Positions 1,037 through 61,813 of a stretch of 64,000 nucleotides of DNA are shown piece after piece (position 1 is the first letter of the stretch; each line of letters starts with the position of its first letter). The notes below the pieces were generated by a model. The model was not told where the DNA came from, did not search any database, and was given only the letters and a program-made list of their open reading frames with translations. This stretch comes from an uncultured virus (IMG/VR IMGVR_UViG_3300050019_000387). Its lineage: Duplodnaviria > Heunggongvirae > Uroviricota > Caudoviricetes. The stretch lies in the IMG/VR virus record IMGVR_UViG_3300050019_000387; one strand, written 5' to 3'. The position numbers and the translations under genes were made by a program.

Positions 1037-2581
1037 TCAGGCCGCGATGCGTGCGGTCTCGCTGACGCGGGCCTCGGCGCTGGTTGTGAGGTGGTGCTCA
1101 AACGTCGAGTAGCGCCCGGCCGGGGTGTTCTGCTGGGTGCTGTTGTGGGCGCGCATCACCATCTGGCCGAGACGGGCGTTGTCCCATCCGAGCTGCCCGG
1201 CGCATCTGAGCAGCCTGGTGATCTCGCGGATCTTCTCCTCGGGCAGGCTGTCCCACGCGATCTGCCGCTCTGACCCCTGGCCTTGGGAGAGTGCGACCAG
1301 CCGGTGAACGACGTCCTCCCGATACTCGTGGTGTGTGATCGTCTGGGCTAGCTCCTGTAGCGCTGGCATTGGCTCAGTGCTCGGCGGGCCGCCCGGCGTG
1401 TCGTTCGCTGTCCCAGCTGGCGTCGTCGGCGAAAACGTCGCCGTCAGCGGCTGGCCGTTGGGAAATGTTTGTGGCTGCTCTGACGCTGTCGGTGGACTGG
1501 GCTGCTGGTTGGCCGATGGGGGATCCTCGGCGCCGGTCACAGGCGGCGGCGACTGGGCGTCCGCCAAGGCCGCTGCGGCGGCCAGGGCGGTCTGGGCCTT
1601 GGCCTCGATCCAGGCGGCGAACTTAGACCGGGCGGCCTCCCGGCCGGGGGAGCGCTCGAAATAGAAGTCGATCGCGCCCAGCACGTTTTCCTCCGGCACT
1701 TTCAGTGAGGAGAGTGAGGCGATCCATCCCTGCACCATTTGGGCCTGCGGCTGGGTGAGCTCGCCGACCTGGTCTTCGCCGCGGGCGAGTTGAGTCATCT
1801 GGCGCGCCACCGTTTCGCTGAAGCGGGCCGTCTGGGCGGCCTGCGCCACCTCGGGGTTGACGATCATCCCTGGAGAGAGCTCCGTCTGAGCGTGCGCGGC
1901 GCTCCGGGGCTCGGATGCCCGGTTCTCCACGAGTTGGGTATCGGCTGGCGGGGGGTCGAGGATCGCGACCCTGCCCTGCGCGGCCTTGCGATGGTCAAGC
2001 GGCTCGCCGTAGATGCGTTCGATGCGCTCCAGCCGCGCTTCGTACTGCTGGCGGATGTAGCGTTCGCTGTCCTCGTCGAGGTAGGGGCGCTTGTGTGGTT
2101 CATCGTCGTCCTTGGGGATACTCAGCTTCTTGTTGCCGGGCCCGCGCCACATCAGGATCTTTCCGACCGCGTATAGGCAGTGACCGACTTCGAACCACCT
2201 GGCGGCGCGCTTGAAGCTCTGCGCGCGCGCCATGAATTCGGCCATCGCCTTCCCGTCGCAGGTCGCCTCGCCGAGATCCTCGAAAGTGCGTCCGAAGACG
2301 GTCACGTACGCACGAATCTTCACGTAGTGCAGCGTCTTCTCGCCGCTCGTTCTCGTCTGCTCGGCGACCTCTTCAAAGAGGACTTCCCAATGGCGGTCGC
2401 AGACGATGTTCAAGCGGCTCATGACCGTCTCGCTGCTGACATAGAGTGCGATCTCGCAGGGAGCATCGATGTTCTCGGGTGCTGACATCACGCGTCCGTA
2501 AACGAGCTCGGGCGTGTAGGGGGCGCGCAGGTAGGGGAGAGCCTCAGAGAACGAGGCCACAGGAAATCTGGTGTCCGTCAT
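1037..2581 (-). CDS. Rad52/Rad22-like ssDNA annealing protein with long C-terminal helical domains
   Basis: YVSSETVMSRLN...W...SFKRAARWFEVGHCLY fits the Rad52/22 pattern; ATGA overlap with the helicase. Confidence 0.7.
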   Translation of the reverse strand: MTDTRFPVASFSEALPYLRAPYTPELVYGRVMSAPENIDAPCEIALYVSSETVMSRLNIVCDRHWEVLFEEVAEQTRTSGEKTLHYVKIRAYVTVFGRTFEDLGEATCDGKAMAEFMARAQSFKRAARWFEVGHCLYAVGKILMWRGPGNKKLSIPKDDDEPHKRPYLDEDSERYIRQQYEARLERIERIYGEPLDHRKAAQGRVAILDPPPADTQLVENRASEPRSAAHAQTELSPGMIVNPEVAQAAQTARFSETVARQMTQLARGEDQVGELTQPQAQMVQGWIASLSSLKVPEENVLGAIDFYFERSPGREAARSKFAAWIEAKAQTALAAAAALADAQSPPPVTGAEDPPSANQQPSPPTASEQPQTFPNGQPLTATFSPTTPAGTANDTPGGPPSTEPMPALQELAQTITHHEYREDVVHRLVALSQGQGSERQIAWDSLPEEKIREITRLLRCAGQLGWDNARLGQMVMRAHNSTQQNTPAGRYSTFEHHLTTSAEARVSETARIAA

Positions 2582-4701: not shown

Positions 4702-4731
4702 AGGGCACTGCTCCTTTCTGGTGGTGAAATA

Positions 4732-8880: not shown

Positions 8881-9096
8881 TCAGCCGCGGGGAACCGGCA
8901 GCAGCGCGTAGCGGTCTGCCGTGTTGAGCCAGGCGGTCACTTCCGGGTCGCGGGCGATGGTGGCTGCGGCCAGCAGGTCGAGCCTGCTCGGTGCCGGGCC
9001 GGTCGCCTCCTCGACGTGGCGGGCGATGCTCCCGAGCTTGACCAGCAACCCAAGCGTCGGGTGCAGCTCATCGGGGATCTCGCCGGGCGCGCTCAC
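8881..9096 (-). CDS. Small hypothetical protein
   Basis: GTG at 9096 coupled (GTGA) to the upstream stop; MSAPGEIPDELHP... Confidence 0.6.
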   Translation of the reverse strand: MSAPGEIPDELHPTLGLLVKLGSIARHVEEATGPAPSRLDLLAAATIARDPEVTAWLNTADRYALLPVPRG

Positions 9097-9848
9097 GCCG
9101 CAAGCTCCCCGAGCTCCGGGGGATCGCTGACCGAGTCGAACGATCCGGCGGCGCAAACGCGGCGGCCCTCCTCGTCGCAGCCCGCGCACAGATCACGACC
9201 CGGGGTCGGTGGCTCTTCACCACACCAGCGGCAGCGGCCTTCGACTTCGTTGCGGCACTCGCTACAGCACTCGCGCTCACCGCCTTCGAGGCGATCACCG
9301 CAACCCGGGCAGCGCTCCCCGAACGCCGCGTCGTGCTCGCTGGCAGGCCCGCCGGCGGCTGTGGGGTCGTCGGGGCACATCAGCGTACGGGCTCCCCCGG
9401 CGAGCGCGCCGATCGCGGCGCCCAGGCAGTCCGGGGCGTCCTCTTCGAACTCGGTGCTGGACCAGTAGGCGATCTCCTCGCCGTCGGGGGCGCAGATCCG
9501 CACACTGTCGACCTCGTCGGGGGCGGGGTCGAAGCGGATCGTGCGGCCGCTGTCGTAGTCGGCGACCGCGCACTCGTGCCACTCGCTGGGGTCCTGGTCG
9601 GCGGGCTGGCGCAGCTCGCGGTTCTCGCGGCGGCCGGGGATCAGCGCGTCGGCGAGCCGGGTGAGCTCTGCGTTTGGGGCGGCGGCGAGCGCGTCGGCGT
9701 TGGTGCGGTGGATCTCGATGCCGTCGACGACGACCGCTGCCCACGTGCAGTCGTTGGGGTAGGGCGGGCAGGTCAGTGTGCGTCCGTTCTCGAGAACGAC
9801 CGAGAACTGCAAGGGGCACTCGTCGAGCGCCTGGGCGGATGCGGGCAT
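9093..9848 (-). CDS. Hypothetical protein with internal repeat and C-terminal CxxC zinc ribbons; paralog of 9928-10418
   Basis: GRTLTCP...GIEIHR and GRTIRFDP...GEEIAYW repeat units; CPGC, CSEC, CRWC, CAGC. Confidence 0.8.
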   Translation of the reverse strand: MPASAQALDECPLQFSVVLENGRTLTCPPYPNDCTWAAVVVDGIEIHRTNADALAAAPNAELTRLADALIPGRRENRELRQPADQDPSEWHECAVADYDSGRTIRFDPAPDEVDSVRICAPDGEEIAYWSSTEFEEDAPDCLGAAIGALAGGARTLMCPDDPTAAGGPASEHDAAFGERCPGCGDRLEGGERECCSECRNEVEGRCRWCGEEPPTPGRDLCAGCDEEGRRVCAAGSFDSVSDPPELGELAA

Positions 9849-13328: not shown

Positions 13329-14963
13329 TCAGGCGGCGGGCTTTGTCAGCGAGAGCGTCACGGTGTGGGTGCTCGTGCCGGACGCCTTGAAGGCCTTGGG
13401 CGGGTTCTCGGTGATCGACCCGCCGTTTCGCTCGATCAGCTCGCGCAGCGCTTGAGTGCGTTTGTCGGTGCGGAACGCGACGCCGGCGGAGGCGATCGCG
13501 GCGAGGCGGCCGCCGGGCGCGAGCAGCTCGTAGGCGCGCGTCACGTGCGCGACGTCCTGCTGTTGCTCGAACGGCGGGTTCATCACGATCCGATCGAAGC
13601 GCTCGGGCAGCTTGGTCGTCGTGAGGAAGTCGTCGCAGATCAGTTGCGGCGGCCGGTAGCCGGCGCGCTCGAGCGCCTGGTGGTGCGTGGGGTCGCGCTC
13701 GCACAGGTAGAGCCGCTCAGCGGGCACCACCTGTGCGAGCAGGTCGGCGATCGCGCCACGGCCGGCGGACGGCTCGAGCACGAGGTGCTCAGCGCGGACG
13801 TCGGCGAGCTCGATCAACTGCTCGGCGAGCGGGCGTGGCGTCGGGAAGTACCCGGTCAGCATGAGCTCGAGCACCTTGCCGTCGACGATCGCGGCGAGTT
13901 CGTCGCTGATCGGCTGGGCGGGCGGGAAGACGTGCCCGCCACGGTGTCGGTTCCACTTGCCGCCGAGCGTGGTGAGGACCTTGTTGACCGCCTCGTACAA
14001 GGGCCGCTCGAGCTGGTCGGGGAGCACGACGAGGCCGTCGGTGACCTCCGTGCGCGCCAGGACCTCGACGACGGCGTCCTCGACTTTCGAGCGGCGCACC
14101 GGCGCGCCGTCGTTCACCGCCGGCGCGGTCTCGTTCACCGGCGCCGCGGCGCCCGGCTCTACCGTGAAAAGCGCCTGCTGCACAGGGAGCGGGGCGGGCC
14201 CGCCGTTCGCGTCGGCGCTGGCGCTTGCTCGGGCCGGGGAGTCTTTGAGTTGCGCAGCGGCGCGGCGCGCCTCGTCACTGTCGCGTGGCGGCTCGACGCT
14301 GCGGCGCCCGTTCCCCCATAAGCGAGTGACGGCGCCGAGCGCGTCGATGCTCGCCTTGATCCCTGGTCCCCGCTCGGCCGGTTCGACCTCGATCACGCCG
14401 TCCTCGAGGCGGCGCACGTATGGGCTGTGCCCGCCTTCGCGGAGCGACTGGCAGGTCTCCTCGACGCGCTCGTCGCGTTGCGCGTAAGGGTAGGGCGGGA
14501 GCGTGTCCGCCTCGACGTAGGCGAGCCAGTGCTCGCCGATGATCTTCCCGTGGCTGGCGATGACGAGCACACGGCCGGTCTGCTCGTGGCCGATGGCCTT
14601 GAAGTGCAGGTGGTCGTCGCGGGTGACGATCCGTGAGCGGAGCACGGTGAGCGTGGCCTTGGTGGGGATCGCGGCGATCGCGCGGTGCGCCGGGCCGCCG
14701 AGTTGGCTGAGGTCGAGCGTGCAGTAAGGGCCGACCTCGTTGCCGGCCAGCAGCCGCCCGGCAGGGGCGCGGCTTGCGCCAGCATCCGGGCGGCGCGCAG
14801 CGGTTCCGTCCACGATGTCCCACTCGCCGAGGTAGTCGATTACCTCGGCGAAGTCGCGGGTCGCGAGCGCCACCGGGCGGGGCATCCCGTCGTGCTCGTC
14901 GGCTTGTGTGGTGGTTGTGTTGGTGTCATGCGTGCCGCGCTCGCGCGGGGTCGCGGTGATCAT
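13329..14963 (-). CDS. SAM-dependent DNA amino-methyltransferase (NPPF) with long N-terminal region
   Basis: YFPTP, VLEPSAGRGAIA, DFL, FDRIVMNPPF, LAPGGRLAAI, FKASGT. Confidence 0.85.
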   Translation of the reverse strand: MITATPRERGTHDTNTTTTQADEHDGMPRPVALATRDFAEVIDYLGEWDIVDGTAARRPDAGASRAPAGRLLAGNEVGPYCTLDLSQLGGPAHRAIAAIPTKATLTVLRSRIVTRDDHLHFKAIGHEQTGRVLVIASHGKIIGEHWLAYVEADTLPPYPYAQRDERVEETCQSLREGGHSPYVRRLEDGVIEVEPAERGPGIKASIDALGAVTRLWGNGRRSVEPPRDSDEARRAAAQLKDSPARASASADANGGPAPLPVQQALFTVEPGAAAPVNETAPAVNDGAPVRRSKVEDAVVEVLARTEVTDGLVVLPDQLERPLYEAVNKVLTTLGGKWNRHRGGHVFPPAQPISDELAAIVDGKVLELMLTGYFPTPRPLAEQLIELADVRAEHLVLEPSAGRGAIADLLAQVVPAERLYLCERDPTHHQALERAGYRPPQLICDDFLTTTKLPERFDRIVMNPPFEQQQDVAHVTRAYELLAPGGRLAAIASAGVAFRTDKRTQALRELIERNGGSITENPPKAFKASGTSTHTVTLSLTKPAA

Positions 14964-16918: not shown

Positions 16919-17344
16919 CTAGGCGGCGATGCTGTGCCCGGGGTGCTCGTCGCTGTCGATCTCCTCCGCGGGTTGCGGGGGGATCGGTGGCACGGTCGCC
17001 AGGCGCGGGGCGAGCGGATGCTCGGGGCGCCCGTGGCGCTCCCACTCCGCCGAGGCCGCGGTGAGCAACCCCTTCCACAGCTGCTCACGCCAGTCCTGGG
17101 CGCCTTGCCCGCGAGCCTGGGTGATCGCCGCGGCGATCAGCGGGTCGGAGTCAAGCCCGGCGAGGACGAACACCTCGATCGCGCTGTTGACCTTCGCGAT
17201 TTGCTGTTCGTCCGGTACGTCGGTGTCGGTGAGGGTGGGGTTGTCGGCTTGGGCGATCAGGCGAAGCGTCGGCTTTGTGAGGCGGAAGCGCTCGGCGAGC
17301 CGGGCGAGCGTCTCACGTGGCGTCTCGCCGTCCGCGGGGTTCAT
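16919..17344 (-). CDS. Hypothetical helical protein (weakly resembles the C-terminal domains of 1037-2581)
   Basis: ATGA-coupled to the Rad52-like gene. Confidence 0.7.
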   Translation of the reverse strand: MNPADGETPRETLARLAERFRLTKPTLRLIAQADNPTLTDTDVPDEQQIAKVNSAIEVFVLAGLDSDPLIAAAITQARGQGAQDWREQLWKGLLTAASAEWERHGRPEHPLAPRLATVPPIPPQPAEEIDSDEHPGHSIAA

Positions 17345-18174
17345 GCTGCCCACCGCCTCGGCTTTGGGCCGAGCGCGCTGAAGTCGACCTCGATCAGCTC
17401 GGCTCCGTCGTCGTCGAAGTCGCCGGCGGGGTTGGTGGTGGCTTGGCGGCGTGCGGCGGTGCGTGCTTGGAGCCCGCCGGGGCTGACTGCGACCAGCGCT
17501 TGGATCGCGCTGCGCAGCAGCGGGCGTGGCTCAGACTGACGCTCGGCACGGTCGAGGACGTTGGCGGCGAGCGCGGCGAGGCCGCGTGCGCGACCGAGCG
17601 GCACGACCGTGCGGTTCCACGGCGCCGGGGTGTGCTCGAGCGGCGGGCCGTAGCGGTCCTTGAGCCGCTCGATCTGCGCGGCGTAGTGCTCGCGTGCGCG
17701 ATCTTCGAGCGCGCGCGGGAGGATCAATTGGCCGTTGCTCCCGACGAGCACGTGGCCGGGCTGCTCGCCGATCGGGAAGGTGAGCGGGTCGATCGCGGCG
17801 AGGAAGGCGCCGACGCCGATCAACAGCGCGCAGTGCCTGGTGCCGTTGGCGGCCTGCGCGAGCCGGTCGGTGCCCTGCCCGACCGCGGTCAGGGTGCGGT
17901 CGATGACGGTGAGCGAGCACGACAGGCTGCGCGCGTCGAGCACGCTCGGTGTTCCCGGTGACCAGTTGCCGAGACCGAAGACGTAGGTCAGCCGCGCCTC
18001 GACTTGGCGGACGGGGACGAAGAACACGGCGCGAGCTTGGCCGGGGGCGCGTGGTTCGCGGCGTGCGAACACGCCGATCGTCTGCGCGGTGAACGGCGCC
18101 TCGAGGTAGGGGCGCGCATCGCGCACTTGCACAACGGGCAGCCGCGGACGGCTACCCGCAGGTGGTTCGGGCAT
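17341..18174 (-). CDS. Rad52/Rad22-like annealing protein (copy 2, diverged)
   Basis: ARPYLEAPFT vs ALPYLRAPYT in copy 1; FVPVRQVEARLTYVFGLGNWS; IERLKDRYGPPLEH vs LERIERIYGEPLDH; ATG at 18174 with GAAGGAG. Confidence 0.65.
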   Translation of the reverse strand: MPEPPAGSRPRLPVVQVRDARPYLEAPFTAQTIGVFARREPRAPGQARAVFFVPVRQVEARLTYVFGLGNWSPGTPSVLDARSLSCSLTVIDRTLTAVGQGTDRLAQAANGTRHCALLIGVGAFLAAIDPLTFPIGEQPGHVLVGSNGQLILPRALEDRAREHYAAQIERLKDRYGPPLEHTPAPWNRTVVPLGRARGLAALAANVLDRAERQSEPRPLLRSAIQALVAVSPGGLQARTAARRQATTNPAGDFDDDGAELIEVDFSALGPKPRRWAA

Positions 18175-18262
18175 CGTTGTCTCCTTCAGGTTGGGGTGGC
18201 GCGGCCACAGCGGGCCGCGCTCTTGGGTTGGGAGTGGGTGGCCGCGTGGCGCGGCCAGGGTG

Positions 18263-18591
18263 TCACTCCTCGCGGGCCTTGCGCTCGCCGGAGCGGTAGG
18301 CGTCCTCGTCGTCGTAGACGGCGACGCCGAAGTCCCCTTCGCAGTAGTGCGCGTCAACTGCTGGTAGGCGTCGGTTTCGATCGCGGTCGCGAGCAGCTGG
18401 TCGCGGAGTGTGAGCGCCGCCGGCGGGCCGCTGGGCGCTCCCGGGCCGGGGAGTGTGAGCGTCACGCCGCTCGCGGTGCTCACGGCCGCCGGCGGTGGCG
18501 CCGGCGGCGGCGGGGGCTCTTCACCGCCGGCGGCAAGCTGCGGTTCGCCGGCGGCTGCGCTGAGCGCCGACGGCACGGTCGTGGATGCCAT
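18263..18591 (-). pseudogene. Small Pro-rich hypothetical gene with apparent 1-nt deletion near 18355
   Basis: MASTTVPSAL...AYQQ continues in a GC3-rich frame as DAHYCEGDFGVAVYDDEDAYRSGERKAREE*. Confidence 0.55.
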
Positions 18592-21456: not shown

Positions 21457-21864
21457 TCATACGTCGCACGCGAGCTGGCCGGCGAGGACCGTGGCGCGCT
21501 CGTAGATCTCGTCGAGGTCGACGGTCGCGGTCTCGCCGCGATCGTTGACGGCGCTGGCTCGGGCGCCGATGTAGCTTGCTTTCTCTGAGCTTGCCTCCTT
21601 GAGCACGGCGGCCTCGCCGGGCTTGAGGTGTTCGGCGATCAGCGCGAGCAGGTCGACCTCGACGCCTTCCCGGCTGTCGTCGTCGAAGCGCTCGCTCGGC
21701 CAGCAGCCCTTGTCCTGCTCGCTGACGAGGTAGACGTGGTTTGGGTCGCCGTCGCCGGTTGCCGGGTAGACGATGATCGCCAGCCCGTCGAGCGCCGTGC
21801 GCAGCGCGCGGGCGTCACGAACATGGAAGGTGCTCGATGCGGCCTTCGCGTAGAACTCGGACAT
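21457..21864 (-). CDS. Hypothetical protein, paralog of 24981-25370
   Basis: ASSTFHVRD...LIAEHLKPGEAAVLKE...TVDLDEI; TGATG coupling. Confidence 0.75.
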   Translation of the reverse strand: MSEFYAKAASSTFHVRDARALRTALDGLAIIVYPATGDGDPNHVYLVSEQDKGCWPSERFDDDSREGVEVDLLALIAEHLKPGEAAVLKEASSEKASYIGARASAVNDRGETATVDLDEIYERATVLAGQLACDV

Positions 21865-22379
21865 CACGCCGCTCCGTTCGTGGCCGCGGCTGCGCTCGGT
21901 GCGGGTTGCGCCCACCTGGAGGTGAACGGTTCGATCAGCGGCTGCTCGTCGTCCAGGTGGAGCAGGATCCGATCAGTGGGCACGAGGTCGAAGTTGAAGC
22001 GGTCGCGGCGTTCGATCACGCCGATACGTTCGTGGCCGCCGGGCCAGACGGCGCGTACGCGAGCGCCCTCAAGCCCCGCGAGCTGCGCTTTGCGCTCCTG
22101 GATCAGCGCCTGGCGCTGCCCCCTTTCGAGCGGCGTAGCGGCGTGCGTCTTGTCGGGCAGTGGCGAGCGGGGTTCGGCGGGGCGTGAGGTTCCTGTGCTG
22201 CCGTCGGCGCTGGTGCTCTCGATCCGCAGGACGTCGTCGTAGCGGGCGAACGTGATGTTCTCGGGGAGGTACCCTTCGTCGAGCAGCCGCATGTAGCAGT
22301 CGACCGCTGCGGGGCGATGGCTCGGCGGGATCTCCTCGAAGCGCAGAGTGACTTTCCGCGCGGGTTTGTAGGCGGGCAT
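21864..22379 (-). CDS. Hypothetical protein
   Basis: 171 aa, AAAGGAG RBS. Confidence 0.7.
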   Translation of the reverse strand: MPAYKPARKVTLRFEEIPPSHRPAAVDCYMRLLDEGYLPENITFARYDDVLRIESTSADGSTGTSRPAEPRSPLPDKTHAATPLERGQRQALIQERKAQLAGLEGARVRAVWPGGHERIGVIERRDRFNFDLVPTDRILLHLDDEQPLIEPFTSRWAQPAPSAAAATNGAA

Positions 22380-22436: not shown

Positions 22437-23285
22437 TTAGGCGGCTTGGTCGAAGAGGGTCGGGGTGATGTCGTGCTCGGCCGCGACGCGGCGCCAGACG
22501 ATCTCGAGCGTCGCTCGCCGCCCGACGCGGGCGGTGCGCACGTGATGGGGGATCACCGTCTTGGTGAACCCGTGGTCTTCGAGCACCCGGTAGGAGGGGT
22601 GCTCGTAGCCGGAGAGCAGCACGGACGCCTCGAGTGTGAGGACCGTGGCGATCAGCTGCTCGTGGTCGTCGATGGTGAGCTCGAAGCGGTAGCCGTGGTT
22701 GCGCCCGATCCGTGACCTGGTCTCGGGGTGGTACGGGGGGTCGAGGTAGATGCACGCGCCGGGTGAGTCGTAGCGGTCGAGCAGCGCCCGCCAGTCGAGG
22801 TGCTCGATCTGCACGCCTCGCAGGCGTGATGCGAATCGCTCGAGCTCGTCGATCGTCGCGGCGAACGAGGCGGCGCGGGTGCCGCCGGAGAGCGCGCCGT
22901 TCAGTTCATGCCCCCAGCTCTTGGATGCGCTGCAGCCGAACGCTTGGCGCATCCGCACATACCAGCGGCGCGCCCGCTCGAGTTCGTTCTCGGTGTCCTC
23001 CCAGGTGTCGAGGCAGAGCGTGAACTCCTCGCGCGCGTAGGGGGTGAACCGCAGCAGCCTCGCCAGCTGCTCGGGTTGGTCCCGCAGGCAGCGGAAGAAC
23101 GTGACGAGGCCGGAGTCGATGTCGTTGTAGACCTCCAAGGTGGCGCGGGGCTTGGCGAACAACACCGATGCTGCGCCGCCGAACGCCTCGACGTAGGTGT
23201 GGTGACGCGGCAACATGCCGGCGATCCGCTCGGCGAGGTGGGCCTTGCCGCCGTACCAGCTGATCGGCGCCTTCGGCGCGCTCAC
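22437..23285 (-). CDS. Dam-like (D12-class) DNA adenine methyltransferase
   Basis: WYGGK, YVEAFGGAASVL, YNDID, IYLDPPY, LSGY. Confidence 0.92.
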   Translation of the reverse strand: MSAPKAPISWYGGKAHLAERIAGMLPRHHTYVEAFGGAASVLFAKPRATLEVYNDIDSGLVTFFRCLRDQPEQLARLLRFTPYAREEFTLCLDTWEDTENELERARRWYVRMRQAFGCSASKSWGHELNGALSGGTRAASFAATIDELERFASRLRGVQIEHLDWRALLDRYDSPGACIYLDPPYHPETRSRIGRNHGYRFELTIDDHEQLIATVLTLEASVLLSGYEHPSYRVLEDHGFTKTVIPHHVRTARVGRRATLEIVWRRVAAEHDITPTLFDQAA

Positions 23286-26257: not shown

Positions 26258-26959
26258 TCAGGCGGCCCAGGAGGGAGCGATCCAGCTGAGGTGCTCGAAG
26301 ACCTTGCGGCTCGTCGGGTGCACTTCGCCTGCGGCTGGTGCGCCGTCCGCCGCCTCGGTCTCAATGCGGTCGAGGGCCTCTTCGATCGATGGAGCACCCT
26401 CGGCCAGCGGGACGGCGAGCAGCGTGCGGCGGACCTCGGCGCTGGTGGCGACGGGGACACAGGTGCAGTAGCTCGCGTCGGCGACCGCAACCCACTCTCC
26501 GCGGACGAGCGCGTAGAAGTCGAAGCGCAGCAACTCGACGTCATCGGGGTCGCTGGGGTCGAAGTCGCCGTCGGAGCCCTCGCCGAGCTCGCTCCATTCG
26601 ACCTTGACGCGGCCGGCGACGAGTAGCCGCCCGCGCGGGTCGCTCTCAGGCGAAACCGTGGTGATCTGCCACCACAGCGATTTGTTGGTCTGCGTGCCGG
26701 TCGGCGCCGCGGTGCCGGGGTGGCCGGCGAGCGGGAAGTCGTCGTGGTCGTAGACGCGGCAGCGCTCGGAAACGCCGAGATCGATCGAGTTGGCGAGTAC
26801 GCGCTTGGTCTCGCCGCAGTCGGCGTCGGGCGGCAGGAAGGCGATGCGGTAGTCGGTGATGTTTCCTGCGGGGTCGACCGCGACGTGGTCGAGGTAGAGC
26901 GGCACCGTGGCCTGCAGGCCGGTGCGGGCCGTCGTGAACGGGTCTGGTTGTCTTGGCAT
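26258..26959 (-). CDS. Hypothetical protein; N-terminal domain shared with 62018-62815
   Basis: ARTGLQATVPLYLD...ITDYRIAFLP...LAGHPGT. Confidence 0.8.
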   Translation of the reverse strand: MPRQPDPFTTARTGLQATVPLYLDHVAVDPAGNITDYRIAFLPPDADCGETKRVLANSIDLGVSERCRVYDHDDFPLAGHPGTAAPTGTQTNKSLWWQITTVSPESDPRGRLLVAGRVKVEWSELGEGSDGDFDPSDPDDVELLRFDFYALVRGEWVAVADASYCTCVPVATSAEVRRTLLAVPLAEGAPSIEEALDRIETEAADGAPAAGEVHPTSRKVFEHLSWIAPSWAA

Positions 26960-27013: not shown

Positions 27014-28147
27014 TCAGGCGGCTCGTGCGAACAGCTCGGGCGCTTTGTGAGCGGGCCAGAGCTGCTCGCGCAGGAGCCGTGCGGCGATGAACTGGACGCT
27101 GTGCGGGTTGAGGTCACCGGCGGTGATCCGGCGGCCGAGGAGCTGGCAGGCGTTGACGATCTCGCCGCCGCCGGCCATTGGGTCGCACACGTACTCAGCC
27201 GGGTTGGTGAACGTCGACACCATCCGCCGCGTGAGTCTCGGCGGCAGCATCGTCGCGTAGCGCACGAGGCCCGGACGGTCCGCACGGCCGTTGTCGACCC
27301 ACACATCCAGCGGGTACTCCCCGCCCGCTTTTGAGCGTCGCTGGTCAGCCGGCGGGTGGAAGACGCGGCGCGGGTGGCGGCGCGAACCACGGCACATGAC
27401 GGTGATCGTCCAATGGGCGGGTGCCGGGTACTTCGTGCACCTCGCGACGAATTCACGTTCTGCGACGATCGATGCGATCCACGTGAGGCCCTGCTCCTCG
27501 GCGGCAATCTGCACGTGCGCGGCCGACTGTGGTCCGGTGACGATGACGAGCTGTCCCCCCGGGCGCAGCGAGTCCGCCGCGGCCGAGATCCAGCTGCGTG
27601 AGAACTCGAGGTAGGAGCGGGCGGGGACGTCGATGTAGCCGCCGACGATCTTCGAGCGATCGCGCGCGTACTGCGATTCGCGGAACTCTGGCTCATCCCA
27701 GCACAGGCCCCATGGCGGGTCTGTGATGACCGCGTCCACCTCCTCGTCGAGGTCTTCGAGCAGAGCGACGGCGTCGCGGACCTGTAGCTCGACCTCTTCG
27801 AGGCGTCCGTCGGGGCCGATCAGAACGAAGGTGCAGGGCTGGCCGCCGTCGCGGTCGATCGCCCATACGGCGCGCTCGACGGGGCAGGCGTTCCCGGAGC
27901 GCTGCTGGTTGGCAAGCCAGCAGCGGACGCGGTGGCGCCACTTCGGGTCACGGGGATGCGCTGGGGTCGAGGGCTCAAGTCCTTTGTTGCGCGCGATCTC
28001 TCCGCCGAGCGTGCGCTCGACGTGGTCGTAGAGGTTGGGGAGCGGGTAGGTGCCGTCGTCGAGTGTGCGCAGCACGTCGCCGATGCTGCGAAGCGGCCCG
28101 ATTTCCGGCTCGCGGGTGGGGACCGTGGGTGCGCGAGCGCTCTGCAT
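27014..28147 (-). CDS. N4/N6 DNA methyltransferase (beta-class motif order) with N-terminal winged-helix-like domain
   Basis: ITDPPW, LRPGG, VCDPMAGGGE...GDLN; N-terminal KWRHRVR...VERAVWAI resembles Mrr_N; ATG at 28147 with AAGGAG. Confidence 0.8.
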   Translation of the reverse strand: MQSARAPTVPTREPEIGPLRSIGDVLRTLDDGTYPLPNLYDHVERTLGGEIARNKGLEPSTPAHPRDPKWRHRVRCWLANQQRSGNACPVERAVWAIDRDGGQPCTFVLIGPDGRLEEVELQVRDAVALLEDLDEEVDAVITDPPWGLCWDEPEFRESQYARDRSKIVGGYIDVPARSYLEFSRSWISAAADSLRPGGQLVIVTGPQSAAHVQIAAEEQGLTWIASIVAEREFVARCTKYPAPAHWTITVMCRGSRRHPRRVFHPPADQRRSKAGGEYPLDVWVDNGRADRPGLVRYATMLPPRLTRRMVSTFTNPAEYVCDPMAGGGEIVNACQLLGRRITAGDLNPHSVQFIAARLLREQLWPAHKAPELFARAA

Positions 28148-30379: not shown

Positions 30380-33300
30380 CTAGGCGGCGAGGTCGAGTGA
30401 GGCGAGCGCGCCATCGGGGTCTGCGGTCGCCTCGTCCGCGTCCGCCGAGCCGGCGGGAGAGGCTGCGAGCTCTTGGGCGTGAGCTTTCTTGGCGAGCTCA
30501 GCCTCGATCGCCGCGAGCTTCGCGCGTGCCTGCTCCAAGGCGTCGGCGTGCTTGAACGGGGCGCCGATCGCGCCTTGGGCGCGCTGGCGCTCCGTCTGAG
30601 CGCCGGCCTTTGCGGCTACGGTCTTCGCACGCAACGTCTCAAGGCCGTTCAGGCGAGCCTCAAGCTGGCGGATGAGCGTCAGTGGTTCGTGCTGCACGAC
30701 ATCGAGCGTGCCGTGCGCGGGGGGGCACGGGAGCCCGTCGAAGCCGGCGAGGACATCGCGGGAACCGCTGAGGCTCCCGGCGCTGACCCGTAGCGAGATA
30801 TCGAGCCCGCCGAGGCGCCCGACCTTTCGGGCTTCCTGCCCACGGTGCAGTTCGCTGATGAGCTCCGCGAGCGCGGTTGCTGCCTGGGCGCGCTTGGTGT
30901 ACCTGCTGCCGTCGACTGTCATCGAGAACTTCTCGCCGCGCGTGTCGGTCGCTCGCGCGATCGCGCCGTCGATCGCGTCGATTTCACGCTCGAGCCGCTC
31001 CAGTCCTGCGGTGAGATGGCTCACGTTGACCTTCAGAGCGGACTGGTTGTTGCGATGCGCGCGCTGCAGGCGCTGCAGCCGGGTGAGGTCAGCGCTCACC
31101 GTTGCCTGCTCAAGGATCAGCGTGTCGCCAGCGGCGAGCGCCTTGACCTCGGCGAAGGACAGCGTGTTGTCGCCGATGTCCTCGATCGAGCGAAGGTCGA
31201 GGCGGCCCTGCATCACCTGACCGATGAACCGCGCCTTGCGCTCAACGGTCTGCCAGGAGTAGGCGTCAAAGCTGCCCTCAACGACGTAGCGGTAGATCCG
31301 CACGCCCGAGTTCTGGTTGCCCTGCCGCAGGATCCGCCCCTCCCGTTGCTGGATGTCGGCGGGCCGCCAGGGGCAGTCGATGTGATGCAGTGCGATCGCC
31401 CGCGCCTGGATGTTGGTCCCGACGCCCATCTTCTCGGTCGAGCCGAGCAGGACAGCCACTTGGCCTGAGCGGCACGCCTCGAAGAGCCGTGCCTTCTCGG
31501 TGTCGTTCTTGGCTTCGTGAGCGAAGCGCACCCGCTCGCCGGGCACGCCGCGCTCGATGAGCAATCGGCGCAGCTCGTGGTAGGCATTCCAGCGCCGCGG
31601 GTTCGGTGTCGACAGATCGCAAAAGACGATCTGCAGCGACCCGAGCGTCGGATGGCGCACGTCGGTTCCGGTGATCCGGTACGCGACGTTGCGGGTGATC
31701 CCGTAGATCCGCGCGATGTTGTCGGCAACAACATCGAGCTTGCACACGCCGTCGACGGGGACTCCTGCGCCGACCAGTCGCATGTCCAACGCGGCCTTGC
31801 GGCCGTCGGTGGAGATCAGGAGCATGTTGTCGTCCTCGGGTGGCACCCCGCCTGCTCTGATCTTCTCGGCCCGCTCAGCGAGCTCGTGCAGGTAGGCGGT
31901 GACCTCCGCCGGGGCAGGGATCACGACGGGTTCGGGGAGCGGCTCGCCGTCGGGGCGAGGCTTGATCGGCGGTGCCGGCAGCTGGAGGTCCTCGGCGGTC
32001 TTGACGTCCGCTGCGAGGTGCCAGACGCGCAGCATCTCCGGCACGTTCTGAAAGCGAGCGAAGCGTGTCTTGAGCCGGTAGGTGCCGCCGGCGGTGACGG
32101 CCATCTCCATTTGGGTGACCGTTTCGCCAAAGGTGGCCGCCCACGCGTCGAAGTGCTCAACGCCCGCGGCCTCGAGCAGGTCGGGGCGCAGGAAGCGGCA
32201 CACGACATGCGCCTCGGTGATGCTGTTGGCGATCGGTGTCGCTGTCGCGAAGGTCGTGACCCGCTCGCCGCGAGCGCGGCGCAGATAGTCGATCTTCATG
32301 TGCAGGTCAGTCGCGCGCTTTGACCCGCCGATCGCCGCGCCCGGGATGTTGCTGATCGTCGCGAGGTTCTTGTAGGCGTGCGCCTCGTCGAGGAACATGT
32401 AGTCGATCGTCGTCTCCTCGAAGGTGAGCCCGACGTCAACGATGCTGTCCAACCGTCGCTCCAGCGTCGCCTCGGCCCGGGCGACCATCCGCTCCAGTTT
32501 CTTGACGGTCAGCTTCGCGCCGCGGTTGCTCTGCTCGTCGAGTTGGGCGCGGACCGCATCGAGCTCGCGCTGGAGGTAGATGCGCTGAACGGGGGCGCTG
32601 ACACCCAACCGCTCGAACGCGCTGCGCGTCATGATGATCCCGTCCCAGTCGTTGGCGACGGCTCGGGCGATGAACCTGCGGCGGTTGTCTTTCGCCAAAT
32701 CGTCCGTGCTTGCGGCGAGCACCCTGGCGAGCGGGTACAGCTGAAGCCACTCGCGCGCGAACTGCTCGAGCATGTGGTTGGGGACAACCACCACCGGCTT
32801 GTTCACCAGGCCCAGCCGGCGCATCTCGTGGGCGGCGATGACCATCGCCGCCGTCTTGCCGGCGCCAACTTCGTGAAAGAGCCCGACCGCCGGCTCGCTG
32901 ATGATGCGCGCCACGGCCGTACGCTGGTGGGCGCTTGGGAGAAACGACTCCGTCAGCCCGGGCAGGGTCAGCGCCTCGCCGAGCACGGAGTAGTCGCGCA
33001 ACACGAGGCTGTTGAAGCGAGTGTTGTACTCCGCGAGCAGCGCGCTGGCGCGCTCGGGGTCCTCCCAGCACCACTCGCCAAAGCGCTGCTGCATCGCTGC
33101 TGCCTTCTCCTGGGCGGCCGCGGTCTCGTCGGGGTTGACGATGTAGCGGTCGTCAGGGAGGCGATCCTTCACGACGATCGGCTTCTGCTGCAGCAGCGCC
33201 GACGCGATCTCGGGGGCGGGCATCCGCTGTGTCCCCCACTCCGAGAGCACGAGGGTGCCGTAGTTGCGTGCCTGCACGGCCCAGACGTTGCCGCCGCCGT

Positions 33301-35395: not shown

Positions 35396-36177
35396 GTGTG
35401 GCTCCTTTGTGACGTAGGCCAAAGACCCGCGCGCGAGGGATGACCGGGGTCACCTCCGAGGCGTGCGCTGGGTCGGGCCCGTGCCCGCCGGGGGGCGGCA
35501 CGCGCCGGTGCTGCGGGAAGCCGCGGGCGCGGCTTAGGTGTGGGCGGGGTGCAGGGAGCGTTATGCGGACATCGGCATAACGAGCGCCAGATGAGTACGG
35601 GGCGCGTGTGGTTCATCGGGCGGCGTGAGCGCTGGTGGCGGTCGGTGCTTTCGATGAGTCCTTGTGACCGCGCGCGCGTGAACGCGTTCCCGACGAGCCG
35701 CGACTCGCGCGGCGGATGCTCCATGTGCTCCCACAGGTCGTCGGAGGTGATCTCCGCCTGGTGCTCGGCGAGCCAGGCGATCTTCTCTACGGCGGCCTGC
35801 AGCCAGATCCGGTCGGCGTCGCGCGCGGCGCGCGTGACCTCCTTGGGATCGACGTACGCGCTCGCGCGCCCGGCAGGGATCGTCAGCGCCTCGCACACAA
35901 GCCCGGTCGGGGTACGCCAGACTTCTTCGCTGTCCAGCTCGGCGAGCAGCGCTCCGTCAGGGGCGAGTAGCTGGCGGCCTGCGAGCGCGACGAGTGTTTG
36001 GTTGATGGCGCCGGGCTCGGCTTCGACGATCGTGGACGCCGGGGCGGCGCCGGCGGCGGGCTCAGCGATCCCCGGGAACGCAGCCGCCGCGGGTGCGGGT
36101 GGCGCGGGTGCGGGTGGCGCGGGCCTCGGCGCAAGCGCCGCTGGCGTCAGGGCGTTGGTCCTGCTCGCGGCGGTCAT
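35311..36177 (-). CDS. Putative winged-helix protein, paralog of 45843-46334; 3' end doubtful (homology ends near 35580)
   Basis: ITSDDLWEHMEHPPRE...GLIEST...PVLIWRSL; ATGA coupling; the tail is low-complexity and overlaps the next gene. Confidence 0.65.
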   Translation of the reverse strand: MTAASRTNALTPAALAPRPAPPAPAPPAPAAAAFPGIAEPAAGAAPASTIVEAEPGAINQTLVALAGRQLLAPDGALLAELDSEEVWRTPTGLVCEALTIPAGRASAYVDPKEVTRAARDADRIWLQAAVEKIAWLAEHQAEITSDDLWEHMEHPPRESRLVGNAFTRARSQGLIESTDRHQRSRRPMNHTRPVLIWRSLCRCPHNAPCTPPTPKPRPRLPAAPARAAPRRARARPSARLGGDPGHPSRAGLWPTSQRSHTCLNRACSRSSATPSPRAHHDQHVRRWR

Positions 36178-36992
36178 GCCGCGCGCCTCGCGAGGTGCGC
36201 CACGCGGGGTCGGGCGCGCCGCTCGGCGAGCTCGTCGCGTTCACGGCGCCGACGGGCGAGAACCTCCTTGAGGTTCGGCGGCCGGTGGCCTGTGAGAAAG
36301 TACGCCCACAGGCCGTCGGGGTGGCTCCCGGTCCGCGAGCCGTTCTGCCAGGTGCCGCCGCCGCCCCACGGCTTGCAGTCGCGGAGGCGGACCCATCCGT
36401 CGGTGCGGTAGATGTGCCCTTGCGAGCCGGGAAGCTGGTAGGCGACGAGCGCGATCTTGGTGGTGTCGGGGTAGTACGGCCAGTACGCGGTGGCGAGGAA
36501 CTCGCGCCAGAGGCGCAACATCACGCGCAGTGACCCGGCGGCAGCGGGATCGTCGGAGCGGCAAAGGCGGGTGAGCTCGATGACGTTGTGACGGTGAAGG
36601 CCGAGCTCTTGGTCGACACTTGCTGAAACGGTGCTGCCGGCGGTCGCAAGCGCGATCGGTTCGCCTTTGACGAACAGCGCGAACGCGTGGTAACCGAACG
36701 GGCGCGTCTCGGCACCAAGCGGGCTCCAGAGGTCACACAGCGGGTTGGATCCGCGGCGGGTGAGCCGGCGGATCTCGATCGCCGGTGGCGCGCCGGCGCG
36801 AGCGCGACGCTCGCTCGCCGCCCACAAGTTCGGCTCGGGCCAGAGCACGCCGGGGATCTGTGTCTGCGCGCCGTTGGGGAGCGTGACATTGATCGTCGGG
36901 TTCGTAATTGCCTTCAGCGGCGGGATCGCGTTGAGGTCAACGGCCGGTGGTGGCGCGCCGGTTCTCGGCGCGAGCAGGGTGAGTGTGCCCAT
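36174..36992 (-). CDS. Mom/XF1762-like GNAT-fold putative DNA-modifying protein
   Basis: IELTRLC...LVAYQLPGSQGHIYRTDGW matches the ELxRL...Y...GxxYxAxGW pattern. Confidence 0.6.
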   Translation of the reverse strand: MGTLTLLAPRTGAPPPAVDLNAIPPLKAITNPTINVTLPNGAQTQIPGVLWPEPNLWAASERRARAGAPPAIEIRRLTRRGSNPLCDLWSPLGAETRPFGYHAFALFVKGEPIALATAGSTVSASVDQELGLHRHNVIELTRLCRSDDPAAAGSLRVMLRLWREFLATAYWPYYPDTTKIALVAYQLPGSQGHIYRTDGWVRLRDCKPWGGGGTWQNGSRTGSHPDGLWAYFLTGHRPPNLKEVLARRRRERDELAERRARPRVAHLARRAA

Positions 36993-48204: not shown

Positions 48205-49902
48205 TCAGGCGGCGAGCGCCGCCTGCACTTCCGGCGCGGGTGCCGGTGGCGCGAGCGCTACGACGGTCGCTGGCGTGGTGTCGTAGAGGTCGCTGAAGCG
48301 CGGCACGAGGAGGTTGGGGTCGTTCTTGAGCGCGGCGGCGAGCGAGCGCTCGATCAGCCCACGGGTGAGCTTCCCCGGCGTGTTCTTCGTGCCGCCTGTG
48401 CGAAGGATCTGGCTGAGCAGGTCCGCTTTGATCCCGACGATCTCGCTCGCCGCCCGCTGTGTCCCGTACTGGCGGACCCGGCCCTGGAGCCAGGCGACGA
48501 ACGGTGTGGAGTCAACGAGCTCCGCCCGCATCACTTCATGGCCGCGTGCGAGCGCCGCCTCCCGCTCTGTGCGGGTGCGCTCGGAGTGCGCGAAGCACTT
48601 GCGCTCGCCGCGCATCGCGTAGTTCCCGCACGGGCGGCCGGTCGTCTTGCACGTCGCGTCGCAGAGCGGCTGCGTTCCTTTGCTCTTGCGGTAGCGGTGG
48701 CGCTCGTAGCGCAGGTCGCCGCGGTGAGCGGTCATGCCGTGACGCCAGTTCGTCGCCCGGGTCGCCTCGCGTTGTGAGCGGGCGGGCCACCCGTTCGTCT
48801 TGAAGACGCGGTGCAGCGTCAAGCCGAGCGACTTCGCGCTGGTGTTCTCGATCCGCGGGAACACCTCGAACAGGCGCCTTGCGGTGCGGTTGAAGCCCCA
48901 GCCGTCGAGGTAGTAGCGGTAGGCGGCCTCCCACACGAGCTCCGCCGGCAGTTTGCCTTGGTAGGCGTAGCCGGGGTCGCGGGTCTCAAGGTACGCCTCG
49001 ATCCGCTCGCGTTGGCGCTCCAGTAGTTGCGGGTTGTGCTTCAGCGTGCGCCCGTCGATGTCGAGCAGCACGCCGCGGCGATCGAGGCAGCCGCGGAGCC
49101 CTTCGCTGAGCGTGGACGGGCTCGCCCAGCGGCCGGGGTGGCGCTCGTGGAGGATACGCGCCGCGTCGAGCAGCACGAGATCGCAGTAGAGGTACAGGCG
49201 CATGGCCTCGCGCACGAACGTCTCGGGCAGCCCTTTGCGGCGCGCGTCGACGCCGGGCGGCTCGACCGGCTCGCCGGTGAGGCTGTCGAGGTCGGGCCGC
49301 TTGGACGGCGTGAGCCCCTTGAGCGCGACGCTCTTGCGCCGGCGGCGCCGTGTGTGCTTGCGCGGCGTGCCGGCGGGTTTGCGCGGCGGGCGGCCGGTCG
49401 CCTGTGTTCTGGGGCGCGAGATCGCGGTCTCACACCAGCCGCAGCGTCCGTCGAAGACGGGCACCTCGTCAGAGCAGGTGGGGCAGAACAGCTCCTGGGC
49501 GTCGGGGTCGGCTTCGCCGGCTTCGGGGTAGATCTCCCACACCGCGACGCCGGCGTGCTCGAGTGCGGCTTCGATCATCTCGGCGCTCGCCATGAACAGT
49601 CCGGTGCGCTCGTCGAGGGTGGCGCCGCGGCCGGGTTGGCGACGCCGCCAGCAGTACAGGCGCTTGCGCGGCCCATCAGCGGTCCAGGCGATGTCGCGCA
49701 GCAGGATCTCGAGTGCCCCGGTGTCTTTCGGCGGCTCAATGCCGCGTTCGCGGGCCTGGCGGCGAAGTTCCGTGTCGGTGGTGGTGATGCGCTGCTCCAC
49801 CCATGCGATGAACGGCGCGGCGTCGCGCATCTCCGGCCCAGCTTGCTTCTCCGGGTCGGGTGGTTGACGCTCGTCGGGGACGAGCGTCAGCGTTGAAGGC
49901 AC
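48205..49902 (-). CDS. Multi-domain putative DNA-binding protein (zinc fingers + several HTH-like units)
   Basis: CPTC...CGWC; CDATCKTTGRPC...CFAH; GTQRAASEIVGIKADLLSQIL (XRE-like); GTG with AAAGGAGG. Confidence 0.7.
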   Translation of the reverse strand: MPSTLTLVPDERQPPDPEKQAGPEMRDAAPFIAWVEQRITTTDTELRRQARERGIEPPKDTGALEILLRDIAWTADGPRKRLYCWRRRQPGRGATLDERTGLFMASAEMIEAALEHAGVAVWEIYPEAGEADPDAQELFCPTCSDEVPVFDGRCGWCETAISRPRTQATGRPPRKPAGTPRKHTRRRRRKSVALKGLTPSKRPDLDSLTGEPVEPPGVDARRKGLPETFVREAMRLYLYCDLVLLDAARILHERHPGRWASPSTLSEGLRGCLDRRGVLLDIDGRTLKHNPQLLERQRERIEAYLETRDPGYAYQGKLPAELVWEAAYRYYLDGWGFNRTARRLFEVFPRIENTSAKSLGLTLHRVFKTNGWPARSQREATRATNWRHGMTAHRGDLRYERHRYRKSKGTQPLCDATCKTTGRPCGNYAMRGERKCFAHSERTRTEREAALARGHEVMRAELVDSTPFVAWLQGRVRQYGTQRAASEIVGIKADLLSQILRTGGTKNTPGKLTRGLIERSLAAALKNDPNLLVPRFSDLYDTTPATVVALAPPAPAPEVQAALAA

Positions 49903-50782: not shown

Positions 50783-51021
50783 TCGAGGACATCCCCGGGC
50801 TCCCGCTGGTAGCAGGCGCGGATCATGTCGTCGAGGGTGGTGGTCGGGTCGCGCAGGTACTCGGCGGTCGCGTTGATCTGCAGGTTCAGTAGATCCCGCT
50901 GGCCCTCGTCGCCGGCCTTGACCCTGGTCAGGATGTCCTCGGCGGCATGGTTGGCAGCCACCTCGATTTCCGTCCCGGTGAAGCGGCGCTCGCTGCGGCC
51001 GGGCTGTGCGGGGGCGCTCAC
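50767..51021 (-). CDS. Small hypothetical protein
   Basis: GTGA-coupled to csrA. Confidence 0.65.
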   Translation of the reverse strand: MSAPAQPGRSERRFTGTEIEVAANHAAEDILTRVKAGDEGQRDLLNLQINATAEYLRDPTTTLDDMIRACYQREPGDVLEWTQR

Positions 51022-51209
51022 GCCGCGCACGGGAGCGTGTCGGCGTCAGCCTGTGGGGGTGGCGGGGCGAGCTCACCGCGCAGGATCCGCGTTGTCCGTG
51101 GGGCGTCGATACCGAGCCTCACCTGTCCGCCGTCGACGCGGCAGACTGTGATGCGAACGTCGTTTCCGATCTCGATCGTTTCGTTGGTGCGGCGGGTCAG
51201 AACGAGCAT
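51018..51209 (-). CDS. csrA: Carbon storage regulator CsrA/RsmA-family RNA-binding protein
   Basis: MLVLTRRTNETIEIGNDVRITVCRVDGGQVRLGIDAPRTTRILRGEL is the canonical CsrA pattern. Confidence 0.93.
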   Translation of the reverse strand: MLVLTRRTNETIEIGNDVRITVCRVDGGQVRLGIDAPRTTRILRGELAPPPPQADADTLPCAA

Positions 51210-56930: not shown

Positions 56931-56935
56931 TGGTG

Positions 56936-58615: not shown

Positions 58616-58633
58616 GCTGTGTCTCCTTCTGTC

Positions 58634-59383: not shown

Positions 59384-59452
59384 GTGACGTGTCCTTTCGT
59401 CGTTGATGGGTCGGACGCCGGTGCGACAGCACGCGCGCCGCGGGGAAGTCGC

Positions 59453-59863: not shown

Positions 59864-59875
59864 CTGGCTCTCCTT

Positions 59876-60460: not shown

Positions 60461-60540
60461 CTGGTTCCTCTCACTTCGAAGGGTGGTCAAAGGGCGCGGG
60501 TTCGGGCGAGAGGTCCGGTCGGGCGCCGGCCGGTGTGGCG

Positions 60541-60833
60541 CTAGACGAGCGCGAGTTGCTCGTTTTCGATTGCCGCCCACCAGCCGTCGAAGCCGGGCAG
60601 CGCCTTCTCCTGGGCGCTGGCGGGCCTGCGACGACGAAACGTCTCGCGCGTGGGCAACTCGCTCCTGCGGCGTAGCCTGTAGACGCGCTCGATCCCGTCG
60701 TGGGTGTCGATGAGGCCGAGCGAGCCGACGCGCTGCTCGCATTGGGCTCGGGTGCCGTGCGCGAGGACGCGCAGGTCGCGGTTTGCGATGTGGCGAGGCG
60801 GGGCCAAGCGGCGTTCGGCGGAGCGGCGCTCAC
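60541..60833 (-). pseudogene. Small hypothetical gene, probable 1-nt deletion near 60792
   Basis: GTGA-coupled start MSAAPPNAAWPRL joins HIANRDLRVLAHG...NEQLALV* if one C is added; alternatively an intact TTG-start ORF 60541-60807. Confidence 0.45.
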
Positions 60834-61813
60834 GCGGCGACCGCGAGCGGTGTTCTCTGGCTGGGGTCGGAGTCGACGGGGCGGGCTGCAGGTCGCTGGG
60901 CGCCGAGGATGAAGTCGCTCGCGCGTTGCGCTTGGCCGGCGGCGCTGATCAGCAGCTTGGGGTCATCGCGCAGTTTGCTCATCCATGAGGCGATGTACGC
61001 GGCAGTGTTGGTCTGCAGTGCCGGCACGTCGATGTCGGCGATCGCGCACATAAACGCGGCACCCATCTCCGCGACGAGCTCCTCCCGCGAGTACCCCAAG
61101 CCAGCGAACTCACCGATCTCCATGACCTCCTTGCGCGCGAGGCGCCGACGGTGGCCGGTGGAGTGGACGTGCTCGTGAAAGGAGACCGCGTAGTAGGCCT
61201 CGCGGGTCTCGAAGGACTCTGGCTGGGGCAGCCCGACGGTGTCCAACGCGGGCCGGTAATAGGCGTGCGAGCCGCCGTGGATAACGCGCGGCGGATCAGG
61301 CATCTTCGCGAGTAGCGAGCGCGCGGCCTCGATCGGCTCAAACGACGCGCGCTCTGGCAGCGGCGGGATCCGCTCGGTGAGCTCGTCGCACTGCTCGATG
61401 TTGAAGACGTTGTAGTGGCGAAGCAGCGGGATCCGCCTCGGCTTCTCCGCGCCATCCTCCTCGGCTTGGATCACAAGCTGCTTCCAAAACACGATCATCG
61501 TGCTCTGCTCACCGCGGCGCACAGCACCACCCAAGGTGATCGCCTGACGGAATGTCACCCAATAGGGCGAGGTGTAACCGGCGGTGGCGGCGGTGAGGTC
61601 GAGGAGCAGCGTGTTCACGCCCCGGTAGGGCTTGCGGGAGGCGAGGTTGACGTGGGTGTAGCGGTCGCTGTCGGCATGGCGATCAACCCGCCACGGCCGT
61701 CGCCAGGGGACGACGCCGTCCTCAAGCGAGGTCAGGACGCGCCCGGTCACCTCGGCATAGATGTCGCGAGGCGGCCCGCTGGGACGGCGGTTCTTCGCGC
61801 GAGTGGGGCTCAT
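60830..61813 (-). CDS. ardC: ArdC-family antirestriction/ssDNA-binding protein with zincin-like domain
   Basis: LEDGVVPWRRPW, YRGVN, WVTFRQA..LGGAVRRGE, AYYRP..D, FHEHVHSTGH, YSREELVAE, AAYIASW; ATG at 61813 with AAGGAG. Confidence 0.93.
   Translation of the reverse strand: MSPTRAKNRRPSGPPRDIYAEVTGRVLTSLEDGVVPWRRPWRVDRHADSDRYTHVNLASRKPYRGVNTLLLDLTAATAGYTSPYWVTFRQAITLGGAVRRGEQSTMIVFWKQLVIQAEEDGAEKPRRIPLLRHYNVFNIEQCDELTERIPPLPERASFEPIEAARSLLAKMPDPPRVIHGGSHAYYRPALDTVGLPQPESFETREAYYAVSFHEHVHSTGHRRRLARKEVMEIGEFAGLGYSREELVAEMGAAFMCAIADIDVPALQTNTAAYIASWMSKLRDDPKLLISAAGQAQRASDFILGAQRPAARPVDSDPSQRTPLAVAA

Follow-up and report, generated by a model that had tools for sequence, protein, structure and literature searches.

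Terminal Ala-Ala on many proteins of a large mobile element as candidate gene-encoded ssrA-like degrons

Introduction

The uncultured virus record IMGVR_UViG_3300050019_000387 of IMG/VR raises the question of why so many of its proteins end in the dipeptide Ala-Ala (AA). The record is 72,007 bp long with a GC content of 69%, and all 86 genes called on it with a codon model lie on the minus strand. An initial annotation of its first 64 kb (hereafter the window, a stretch of 64,000 nucleotides) had listed 14 AA-ending proteins and had proposed that potentially toxic establishment proteins are made in a burst and then destroyed, with AA serving as in the ssrA tag that is read by the protease ClpXP. 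Here we report that terminal Ala-Ala is a real, selected and conserved feature of this element, and we weigh the explanations that might account for it.

Results

Terminal Ala-Ala is enriched

AA stands directly before the gene's own stop codon in 17 of the 86 genes (Table 1; binomial p=5e-11), compared with frequencies of 1.9% among internal dipeptides and 2.5% within residues -32 to -3. This enrichment is specific to the very end of the proteins, as evident by the fact that AA occupies offset -1 in 17 genes and any other offset back to -30 in only 0 to 6 genes. All 14 C-termini listed by the initial annotation are found on the minus strand where it had placed them, corresponding to 14 of the 74 genes with a low coordinate below 63,900 (p=5e-9), and a 15th AA end in the window had been missed (63942; its stop lies in the last 60 bases). 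The argument that such a number far exceeds chance expectation also stands, with the correction that Ala makes up 13.2% of residues rather than about 15%. Among the 12 genes outside the first count, three more end in AA (63942, VAAA; 65702, REAA; 66441, AIAA; binomial p=0.003), which is an out-of-sample replication of the pattern.

A baseline was obtained by applying the same gene caller to six 50-kb stretches (300 kb) from three large records, of Nonomuraea, Nocardia and Arthrobacter, that PLSDB lists as plasmids but that, judging by their size, are probably chromosomes or a chromid. When the caller was re-run, 17 of 83 element genes ended in AA versus 6 of 242 baseline genes (Fisher p=5.7e-7). 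This baseline represents Actinomycetes, a different class from that of the likely host. Our own caller probably missed ~4 small genes, and the addition of four genes still gives p=1e-8 for 14 of 78. Likewise, collapsing two paralog pairs (1037/17341 and 48205/66441) leaves 15 independent AA ends (p=7e-6 versus baseline), and the conclusion is unchanged by either adjustment.

Two consecutive GCN codons before a stop could also have a cause at the level of DNA or RNA, such as translational coupling through ATGA or GTGA overlaps that contain a ribosome-binding site, or the stop context in GC-rich DNA. Six of the 14 AA genes first listed do overlap the start of the following gene, AA is commoner among overlapped genes (4 of 12) than among non-overlapped ones (13 of 71), and GCC GCC is the commonest codon pair (8 of 17). 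However, the remaining eight of the 14 do not overlap the gene that follows, as had been stated, and the enrichment persists after removal of all overlapped genes (13 of 71 versus 4 of 204 in the baseline, p=9e-6) or of all genes with ATGA or GTGA at the stop (10 of 60 versus 3 of 177, p=9e-5), while overlapped genes of the baseline end in AA in only 2 of 38 cases. Moreover, six codon pairs are used for the two Ala residues and each of the three stop codons follows them in some gene, the third codon position being variable and the first two (GC) constant. Outside the gene set, GCN GCN precedes 9 of 752 stop triplets on the minus strand and 19 of 1390 on the plus strand, and no DNA repeat shared by the AA ends was found among the 20 largest direct-repeat families. 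Stop/start overlap may add to the AA count but is not its cause; an origin at this level is largely refuted already for the non-overlapped genes, and we regard it as very improbable overall.

Ala-Ala is kept in homologs while its surroundings change

Homologs of several of these proteins keep the terminal dipeptide. For the N6/N4 DNA methyltransferase (MTase) encoded at 27014, AA ends 19 of 48 homologs and 16 of the 19 closest (49-91% identity), the exceptions being AV, VA and one 227-residue partial sequence, and the residue at position -3 of the AA-ending MTases is R, Q, P, H, L, T or F. In the family of the 48205 protein, AA is found in 95 of 150 representatives (63%; 105-595 residues, 27-70% identity over matched parts), compared with 1.6% for internal AA. 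Its members end after differing domains, and yet AA is found in every length class (22 of 30 below 200 residues, 36 of 65 at 200-350 residues, and 37 of 55 at 350 residues or more). Four of the five closest ArdC homologs end in AA, including one whose tail is ~20 residues shorter and still ends LAA, and CsrA proteins carry AA in 2 of 4 element-clade relatives (the others end CTA and CPA) versus 0 of 30 other CsrA proteins. The RRAA end of the 36174 protein recurs in 4 of 4 close relatives, and the end of the 63942 protein is identical in 2 of 2. Within the contig, AA is present on both members of each paralog pair, behind unrelated tails, and the untagged 50767 protein and the 65702 protein (REAA) differ at their ends. 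A dipeptide that remains terminal although protein length and the preceding residues vary is what one would expect from selection on a free C-terminal AA. From these comparisons, a selected signal that acts at the protein level through a free C-terminal Ala-Ala is strongly supported.

The names of homologs suggest that the host is likely a member of the Solirubrobacteraceae (Thermoleophilia), a protein from a metagenome-assembled genome of this family (MGO9763077.1) being part of an MTase homolog cluster whose representative is 59% identical to the element's protein. Among named sequencing runs, the best match to the element is a peat metagenome, which may be its source. It could be argued that AA ends are frequent among the proteins of Thermoleophilia in general and that the element mirrors its host, particularly since our baseline comes from another class and high-GC viral loci reach 26 of 515 (5%), above the 2.5% of the baseline. 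A bias of this kind, however, would not account for the AA ends of 16 out of 19 orthologs that are as little as 49% identical, or for those of 63% of a family whose members range from 105 to 595 residues. It also sits poorly with the 80% of the element's own genes that lack AA and with the absence of AA from the 30 other CsrA proteins (hosts unknown), and we judge this explanation to be quite improbable.

The conservation data fit any terminal motif, and AA-COOH might thus be a genuine protein-level signal with a role other than Clp recognition, either in secretion or translocation to the recipient via a conjugation channel or as a tail to which a partner encoded by the element docks. The F-type type IV secretion system (T4SS) translocates pED208 ParB2 and PsiA (PMC8406263), whose F orthologs end in AA, and some T4SS signals are C-terminal (PMC11288057). 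However, SSB and PsiB are translocated as well (PMC8406263) yet lack AA ends in F, and the T4SS signals described are charged or hydrophobic stretches, the word 'alanine' being absent from the main text of PMC11288057. In addition, no T4SS gene was recognized among the contig proteins scanned with Pfam and PHROGs, and the tagged set includes an MTase-helicase of 1646 residues. We consider a translocation or docking role to be improbable.

Ala-Ala tails as predicted Clp degrons

On balance, the AA tails are probably gene-encoded ssrA-like Clp degrons, with ClpXP being the most likely protease. In Streptomyces, sigma-AntA ends in AA in 67 of 71 orthologs, is degraded by ClpXP and is stabilized when AA is changed to DD (PMC7142297). 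In E. coli, AA is found in 91% of the top 100 C-terminal degrons, and the strongest degrons, of which it forms the core, are all ClpXP dependent (10.1101/2024.01.29.576913). By analogy with these precedents, ClpX would take hold of the flexible tail by its free AA-COOH, and the host Clp protease would degrade the tagged proteins and make them short-lived. With a gene-encoded Ala-Ala on about a fifth of its proteins, kept whatever precedes it, the element would borrow the tmRNA quality-control pathway of its host in place of encoding its own timer; no tmRNA was found on the contig. The least certain step is that self-methylases and anti-restriction, annealing, DNA-binding and CsrA-type host-regulating proteins would be cleared soon after their transcription stops, perhaps following entry or induction.

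Several observations weigh against this explanation. AA is insufficient in E. coli, where 39% of AA-ending 5-mers are weak and Pro or Gly at -3 is disfavored (10.1101/2024.01.29.576913), and the KPAA and NGAA tails carry such residues. A hydrophobic residue at -3 is present in 11 of 17 tails (three are Leu, and Pro and Gly occur once each), whereas the degron consensus is [LFYW][LAR]LAA. In a structural model of the 27014 MTase, the tail (residues 368-377) has a predicted local distance difference test (pLDDT) score below 50, but this is weak evidence given that 162 of 377 residues score below 50, including a low-confidence N-terminal 103; the composition-based disorder tendency of AA tails does not differ significantly from that of other tails (p=0.065). 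Conservation also has its limits, in that AA is seldom found in distant homologs (3 of 29 MTases at ranks 20-48; 17 of 119 ArdC homologs overall) and is kept worst by the closest homologs of the 48205 protein (2 of the top 6 and 4 of the top 10), with one of the two AA-ending top-6 homologs probably representing the contig's own paralog. Finally, two PD-(D/E)XK nucleases, two UvrD helicases, a ligase, two ParB-like proteins and a C5 MTase act on DNA and yet are untagged. The initial proposal is consequently retained in part: AA is in all likelihood a selected protein-level feature, and the role with the best precedent, also in Actinobacteria, is that of an ssrA-like Clp degron. The burst of toxic early proteins is a speculative part of the proposal, and these untagged nucleases, helicases and others speak against a simple rule that toxic proteins are tagged.

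Two AA-ending MTases also carry a PxLF motif four residues before the end (PTLFDQAA, 22437-22460, and PELFARAA, 27014-27040, both on the minus strand), and homologs have QPALF, QPQLPL, QLSLL or QLTL. Other element proteins end QMPLL, QLALGI or QLALV, and further sites of this kind are the ends of 49988, 55222 and 60541 and the starts of 43961 and 45843. These sequences resemble the sliding-clamp-binding motif, which suggests clamp-riding MTases with a putative degron just behind the clamp motif. Nothing usable on clamp motifs in MTases was found in the literature.

The element and the timing of clearance

We describe the contig as a portion of a large, probably integrated, mobile element. In IMG/VR the record is listed as a provirus with 33% completeness. 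Proteins of this element are also carried by a JGI contig of 115 kb, and homologs are found on contigs of 232 kb, 1.1 Mb and 2.2 Mb. Since the two longest are of such size, the element probably sits integrated. Its DNA-acting cargo, as recognized with Pfam and PHROGs, comprises ArdC, four amino-MTases, a C5 MTase, two UvrD helicases and two PD-(D/E)XK nucleases, accompanied by a ligase, two ParB-like proteins, Rad52-like and Mom-like proteins and CsrA. No virion, terminase or integrase genes were recognized among 73 proteins scanned with PHROGs or 77 scanned with Pfam, with about two thirds of the element possibly missing. No relaxase was found among the 77 Pfam-scanned window proteins, and no TrwC relaxase match in the 72 kb of what is a fragmentary record. 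Protein P0260 had no phage match, a scan of contig 60-72 kb yielded no sigma-70 promoters, and 0 of 107 loci from genome, viral and metagenome scans had more than two genes in common with the contig.

These features bear on when clearance might occur. The degrons might provide steady low-level or damage-limiting control during residence or after prophage-type induction, rather than ending a one-off burst after transfer. This proposal is a sub-case of the degron explanation and differs from it in timing only. The provirus class, the probable integration and the missing TrwC relaxase would all suit such control. However, with its genes for ArdC, several MTases and ParB-like and Rad52-like proteins on a single strand, the element resembles the leading regions of plasmids, which in F are transiently expressed (PMC9849209), and no phage hallmark is present among the 73 PHROGs-scanned proteins. 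We therefore view steady control as rather unlikely, but as deserving of consideration.

The same modules are found reordered and with deletions on related contigs (two runs, from another study), with joints 53636-60538 and 63769-47500 in window 47500-64000, and for this reason the gene array can be regarded as modular. The C5 cytosine MTase appears as two adjoining open reading frames (ORFs) separated by a 16-nucleotide gap (window 41942-43820), an N-terminal part at 43182-43820 and a C-terminal part at 41942-43165 with a PHROG MTase match, neither of which ends in AA.

The Ala-Ala-ending proteins

The composition of the AA-ending set is largely as first described, with four amino-MTases, ArdC, CsrA and both Rad52-like proteins, but the Mom-like assignment has only a weak PHROG match (Table 1). 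Identities are backed by Pfam for the MTases at 13329, 22437, 27014 and 30380, for ArdC, for CsrA and for the Rad52-like protein at 1037, whereas 6 of the 17 proteins have no family. The 30380 MTase-helicase is presumably DarB-like, and the 17341 protein is a paralog of 1037 (E 3e-6). The 9093-9848 gene is an in-frame fusion, relatives carrying two separate genes, one for a 155-residue protein that lacks AA in 4 of 4 cases and one for a 95-residue zinc-ribbon protein ending ELAA. A tandem duplication of ~570 bp lies at window 9093-10418, and its second copy appears degraded. The 48205 and 66441 proteins belong to an undescribed multi-helix-turn-helix (HTH)/zinc-ribbon family, for which clustering at 50% gives at least 174 representatives. 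The window copy has no Pfam family, and ESM Atlas gave HTH leads only, all below 0.9; it gave no leads for the 26258 protein.

Table 1. Contig genes whose products end in Ala-Ala.
Product	Coordinates	Strand	C-terminus	Remarks
Rad52/Rad22-like annealing protein	1037..2581	minus	RIAA	PF04098 E 1e-4; one close relative also RIAA
Fusion with C-terminal zinc ribbon	9093..9848	minus	ELAA	stop overlaps next start
Amino-MTase (MTS/N6_Mtase-like)	13329..14963	minus	KPAA	
Protein without family match	16919..17344	minus	SIAA	
Second Rad52-like protein	17341..18591	minus	RWAA	ATGA overlap; true start probably further in
Unknown protein	21864..22379	minus	NGAA	TGATG overlap
Dam-like D12 adenine MTase	22437..23285	minus	PTLFDQAA	
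Unknown protein	26258..26959	minus	SWAA	N-terminus common to untagged 62018 protein
N6/N4 DNA MTase	27014..28147	minus	PELFARAA	
MTase-SNF2 helicase fusion	30380..35320	minus	DLAA	1646 residues
Mom-like protein (weak)	36174..36992	minus	RRAA	phrog_1384 E 8e-5; ATGA overlap
Multi-HTH/zinc-ribbon predicted DNA-binding protein	48205..49902	minus	ALAA	
CsrA homolog	51018..51209	minus	PCAA	63 residues from likely true start
ArdC antirestriction protein	60830..61813	minus	AVAA	
Unknown protein	contig 63942-64556 (3′ end at window 63942..64000)	minus	VAAA	204 residues
AA-ending gene product	contig 65702	minus	REAA	
Paralog of 48205	contig 66441-67835	minus	AIAA	

Discussion

The AA pattern has a counterpart in the leading region of the F plasmid, where AA ends 3 of 17 proteins, as against none of the 39 others in the 49-kb stretch that was fetched (p=0.025). 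These are an MTase (PEAA; 4166-4849 of the fetched stretch), YfjB/HerB (LADAA; 9538-11496) and PsiA (LREAA; ORF from 11982), psiA being absent from the PLSDB table and read from the DNA. R64 keeps AA on its MTase and HerB/YfjB orthologs but not on PsiA, and is not independent of F. The R64 DinI-like protein of a umuDC-like operon (24935-25183) also ends in AA (WLPAA). Elsewhere the picture is less favorable to the degron explanation, with 2 of 23 leading-region proteins versus 1 of 78 others in R64 (p=0.13), 1 of 48 on a Pimelobacter plasmid and 15 of 629 in ArdC neighborhoods of other taxa. Viral loci around MTases gave 50 of 1455 and 1 of 185, and a stretch of a Leifsonia plasmid gave 2 of 20. 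The ArdC-neighborhood, viral, R64 and Pimelobacter counts are rough, as they come from our own caller on short loci, with those below 9 kb dropped. Some high-GC viral loci (L127, L129, L138, L149 and L161) have 3-5 AA enders in 16-32 called genes. A strong AA pattern therefore marks some elements and families rather than mobile DNA in general.

No report of element-wide or leading-region AA degrons was found in the literature. Clp goes unmentioned in the accessible text of PMC13370423, PMC9849209, PMC13478746 and PMC7736820, as does ClpX in that of PMC11288057, and nothing usable was found on the host's tmRNA tag or on C-terminal bias statistics. What appears to be new is the element-wide use of what is probably a known type of degron. 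So far, the switching off of anti-defense and host-manipulating proteins of an incoming element has been explained in print at the transcription level only, as for the transient expression of F leading genes, which is explained by single-strand promoters (PMC9849209). A two-residue tag, if it acts as proposed, would add a proteolytic off-switch that relies on a host protease.

It is possible, though we hold this view only tentatively, that mobile elements across phyla, including this element and the F leading region, hard-wire host ssrA-like degrons onto establishment and anti-defense proteins as a general timer. If so, HerB/YfjB, PsiA and the F leading MTase would be unrecognized ClpXP substrates whose lifetimes are overestimated by C-terminal green fluorescent protein (GFP) fusions. 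HerB has been tracked with a C-terminal superfolder GFP (sfGFP) fusion and was visible for ~seven hours (PMC13370423), and this fusion hides the native LADAA end. The AA ends of the F proteins make a direct test possible in E. coli K-12, and such a test would be cheap. Among the many unknown genes of such elements, an AA tag would flag proteins that are likely short-lived or harmful.

Comparison with known systems

Like the ssrA tag and natural ClpX degrons such as that of sigma-AntA (PMC7142297), the tails described here have a free terminal Ala-Ala that is conserved among orthologs and, in 11 of 17 cases, preceded by a hydrophobic residue. They differ in being gene-encoded on 17 proteins of ~15 unrelated families within one element, rather than being added by tmRNA or confined to one regulator. 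Their upstream residues are not YALAA-like, and their role as degrons is a prediction. With the leading regions of conjugative plasmids such as F and R64 (PMC9849209, PMC11541004), the element shares the arrangement, all on one strand, of genes for anti-restriction, MTase, ParB-like and recombination proteins. Unlike those regions, it extends over at least 72 kb without a relaxase, oriT or T4SS being seen, and it carries terminal Ala-Ala on a higher share of its proteins.

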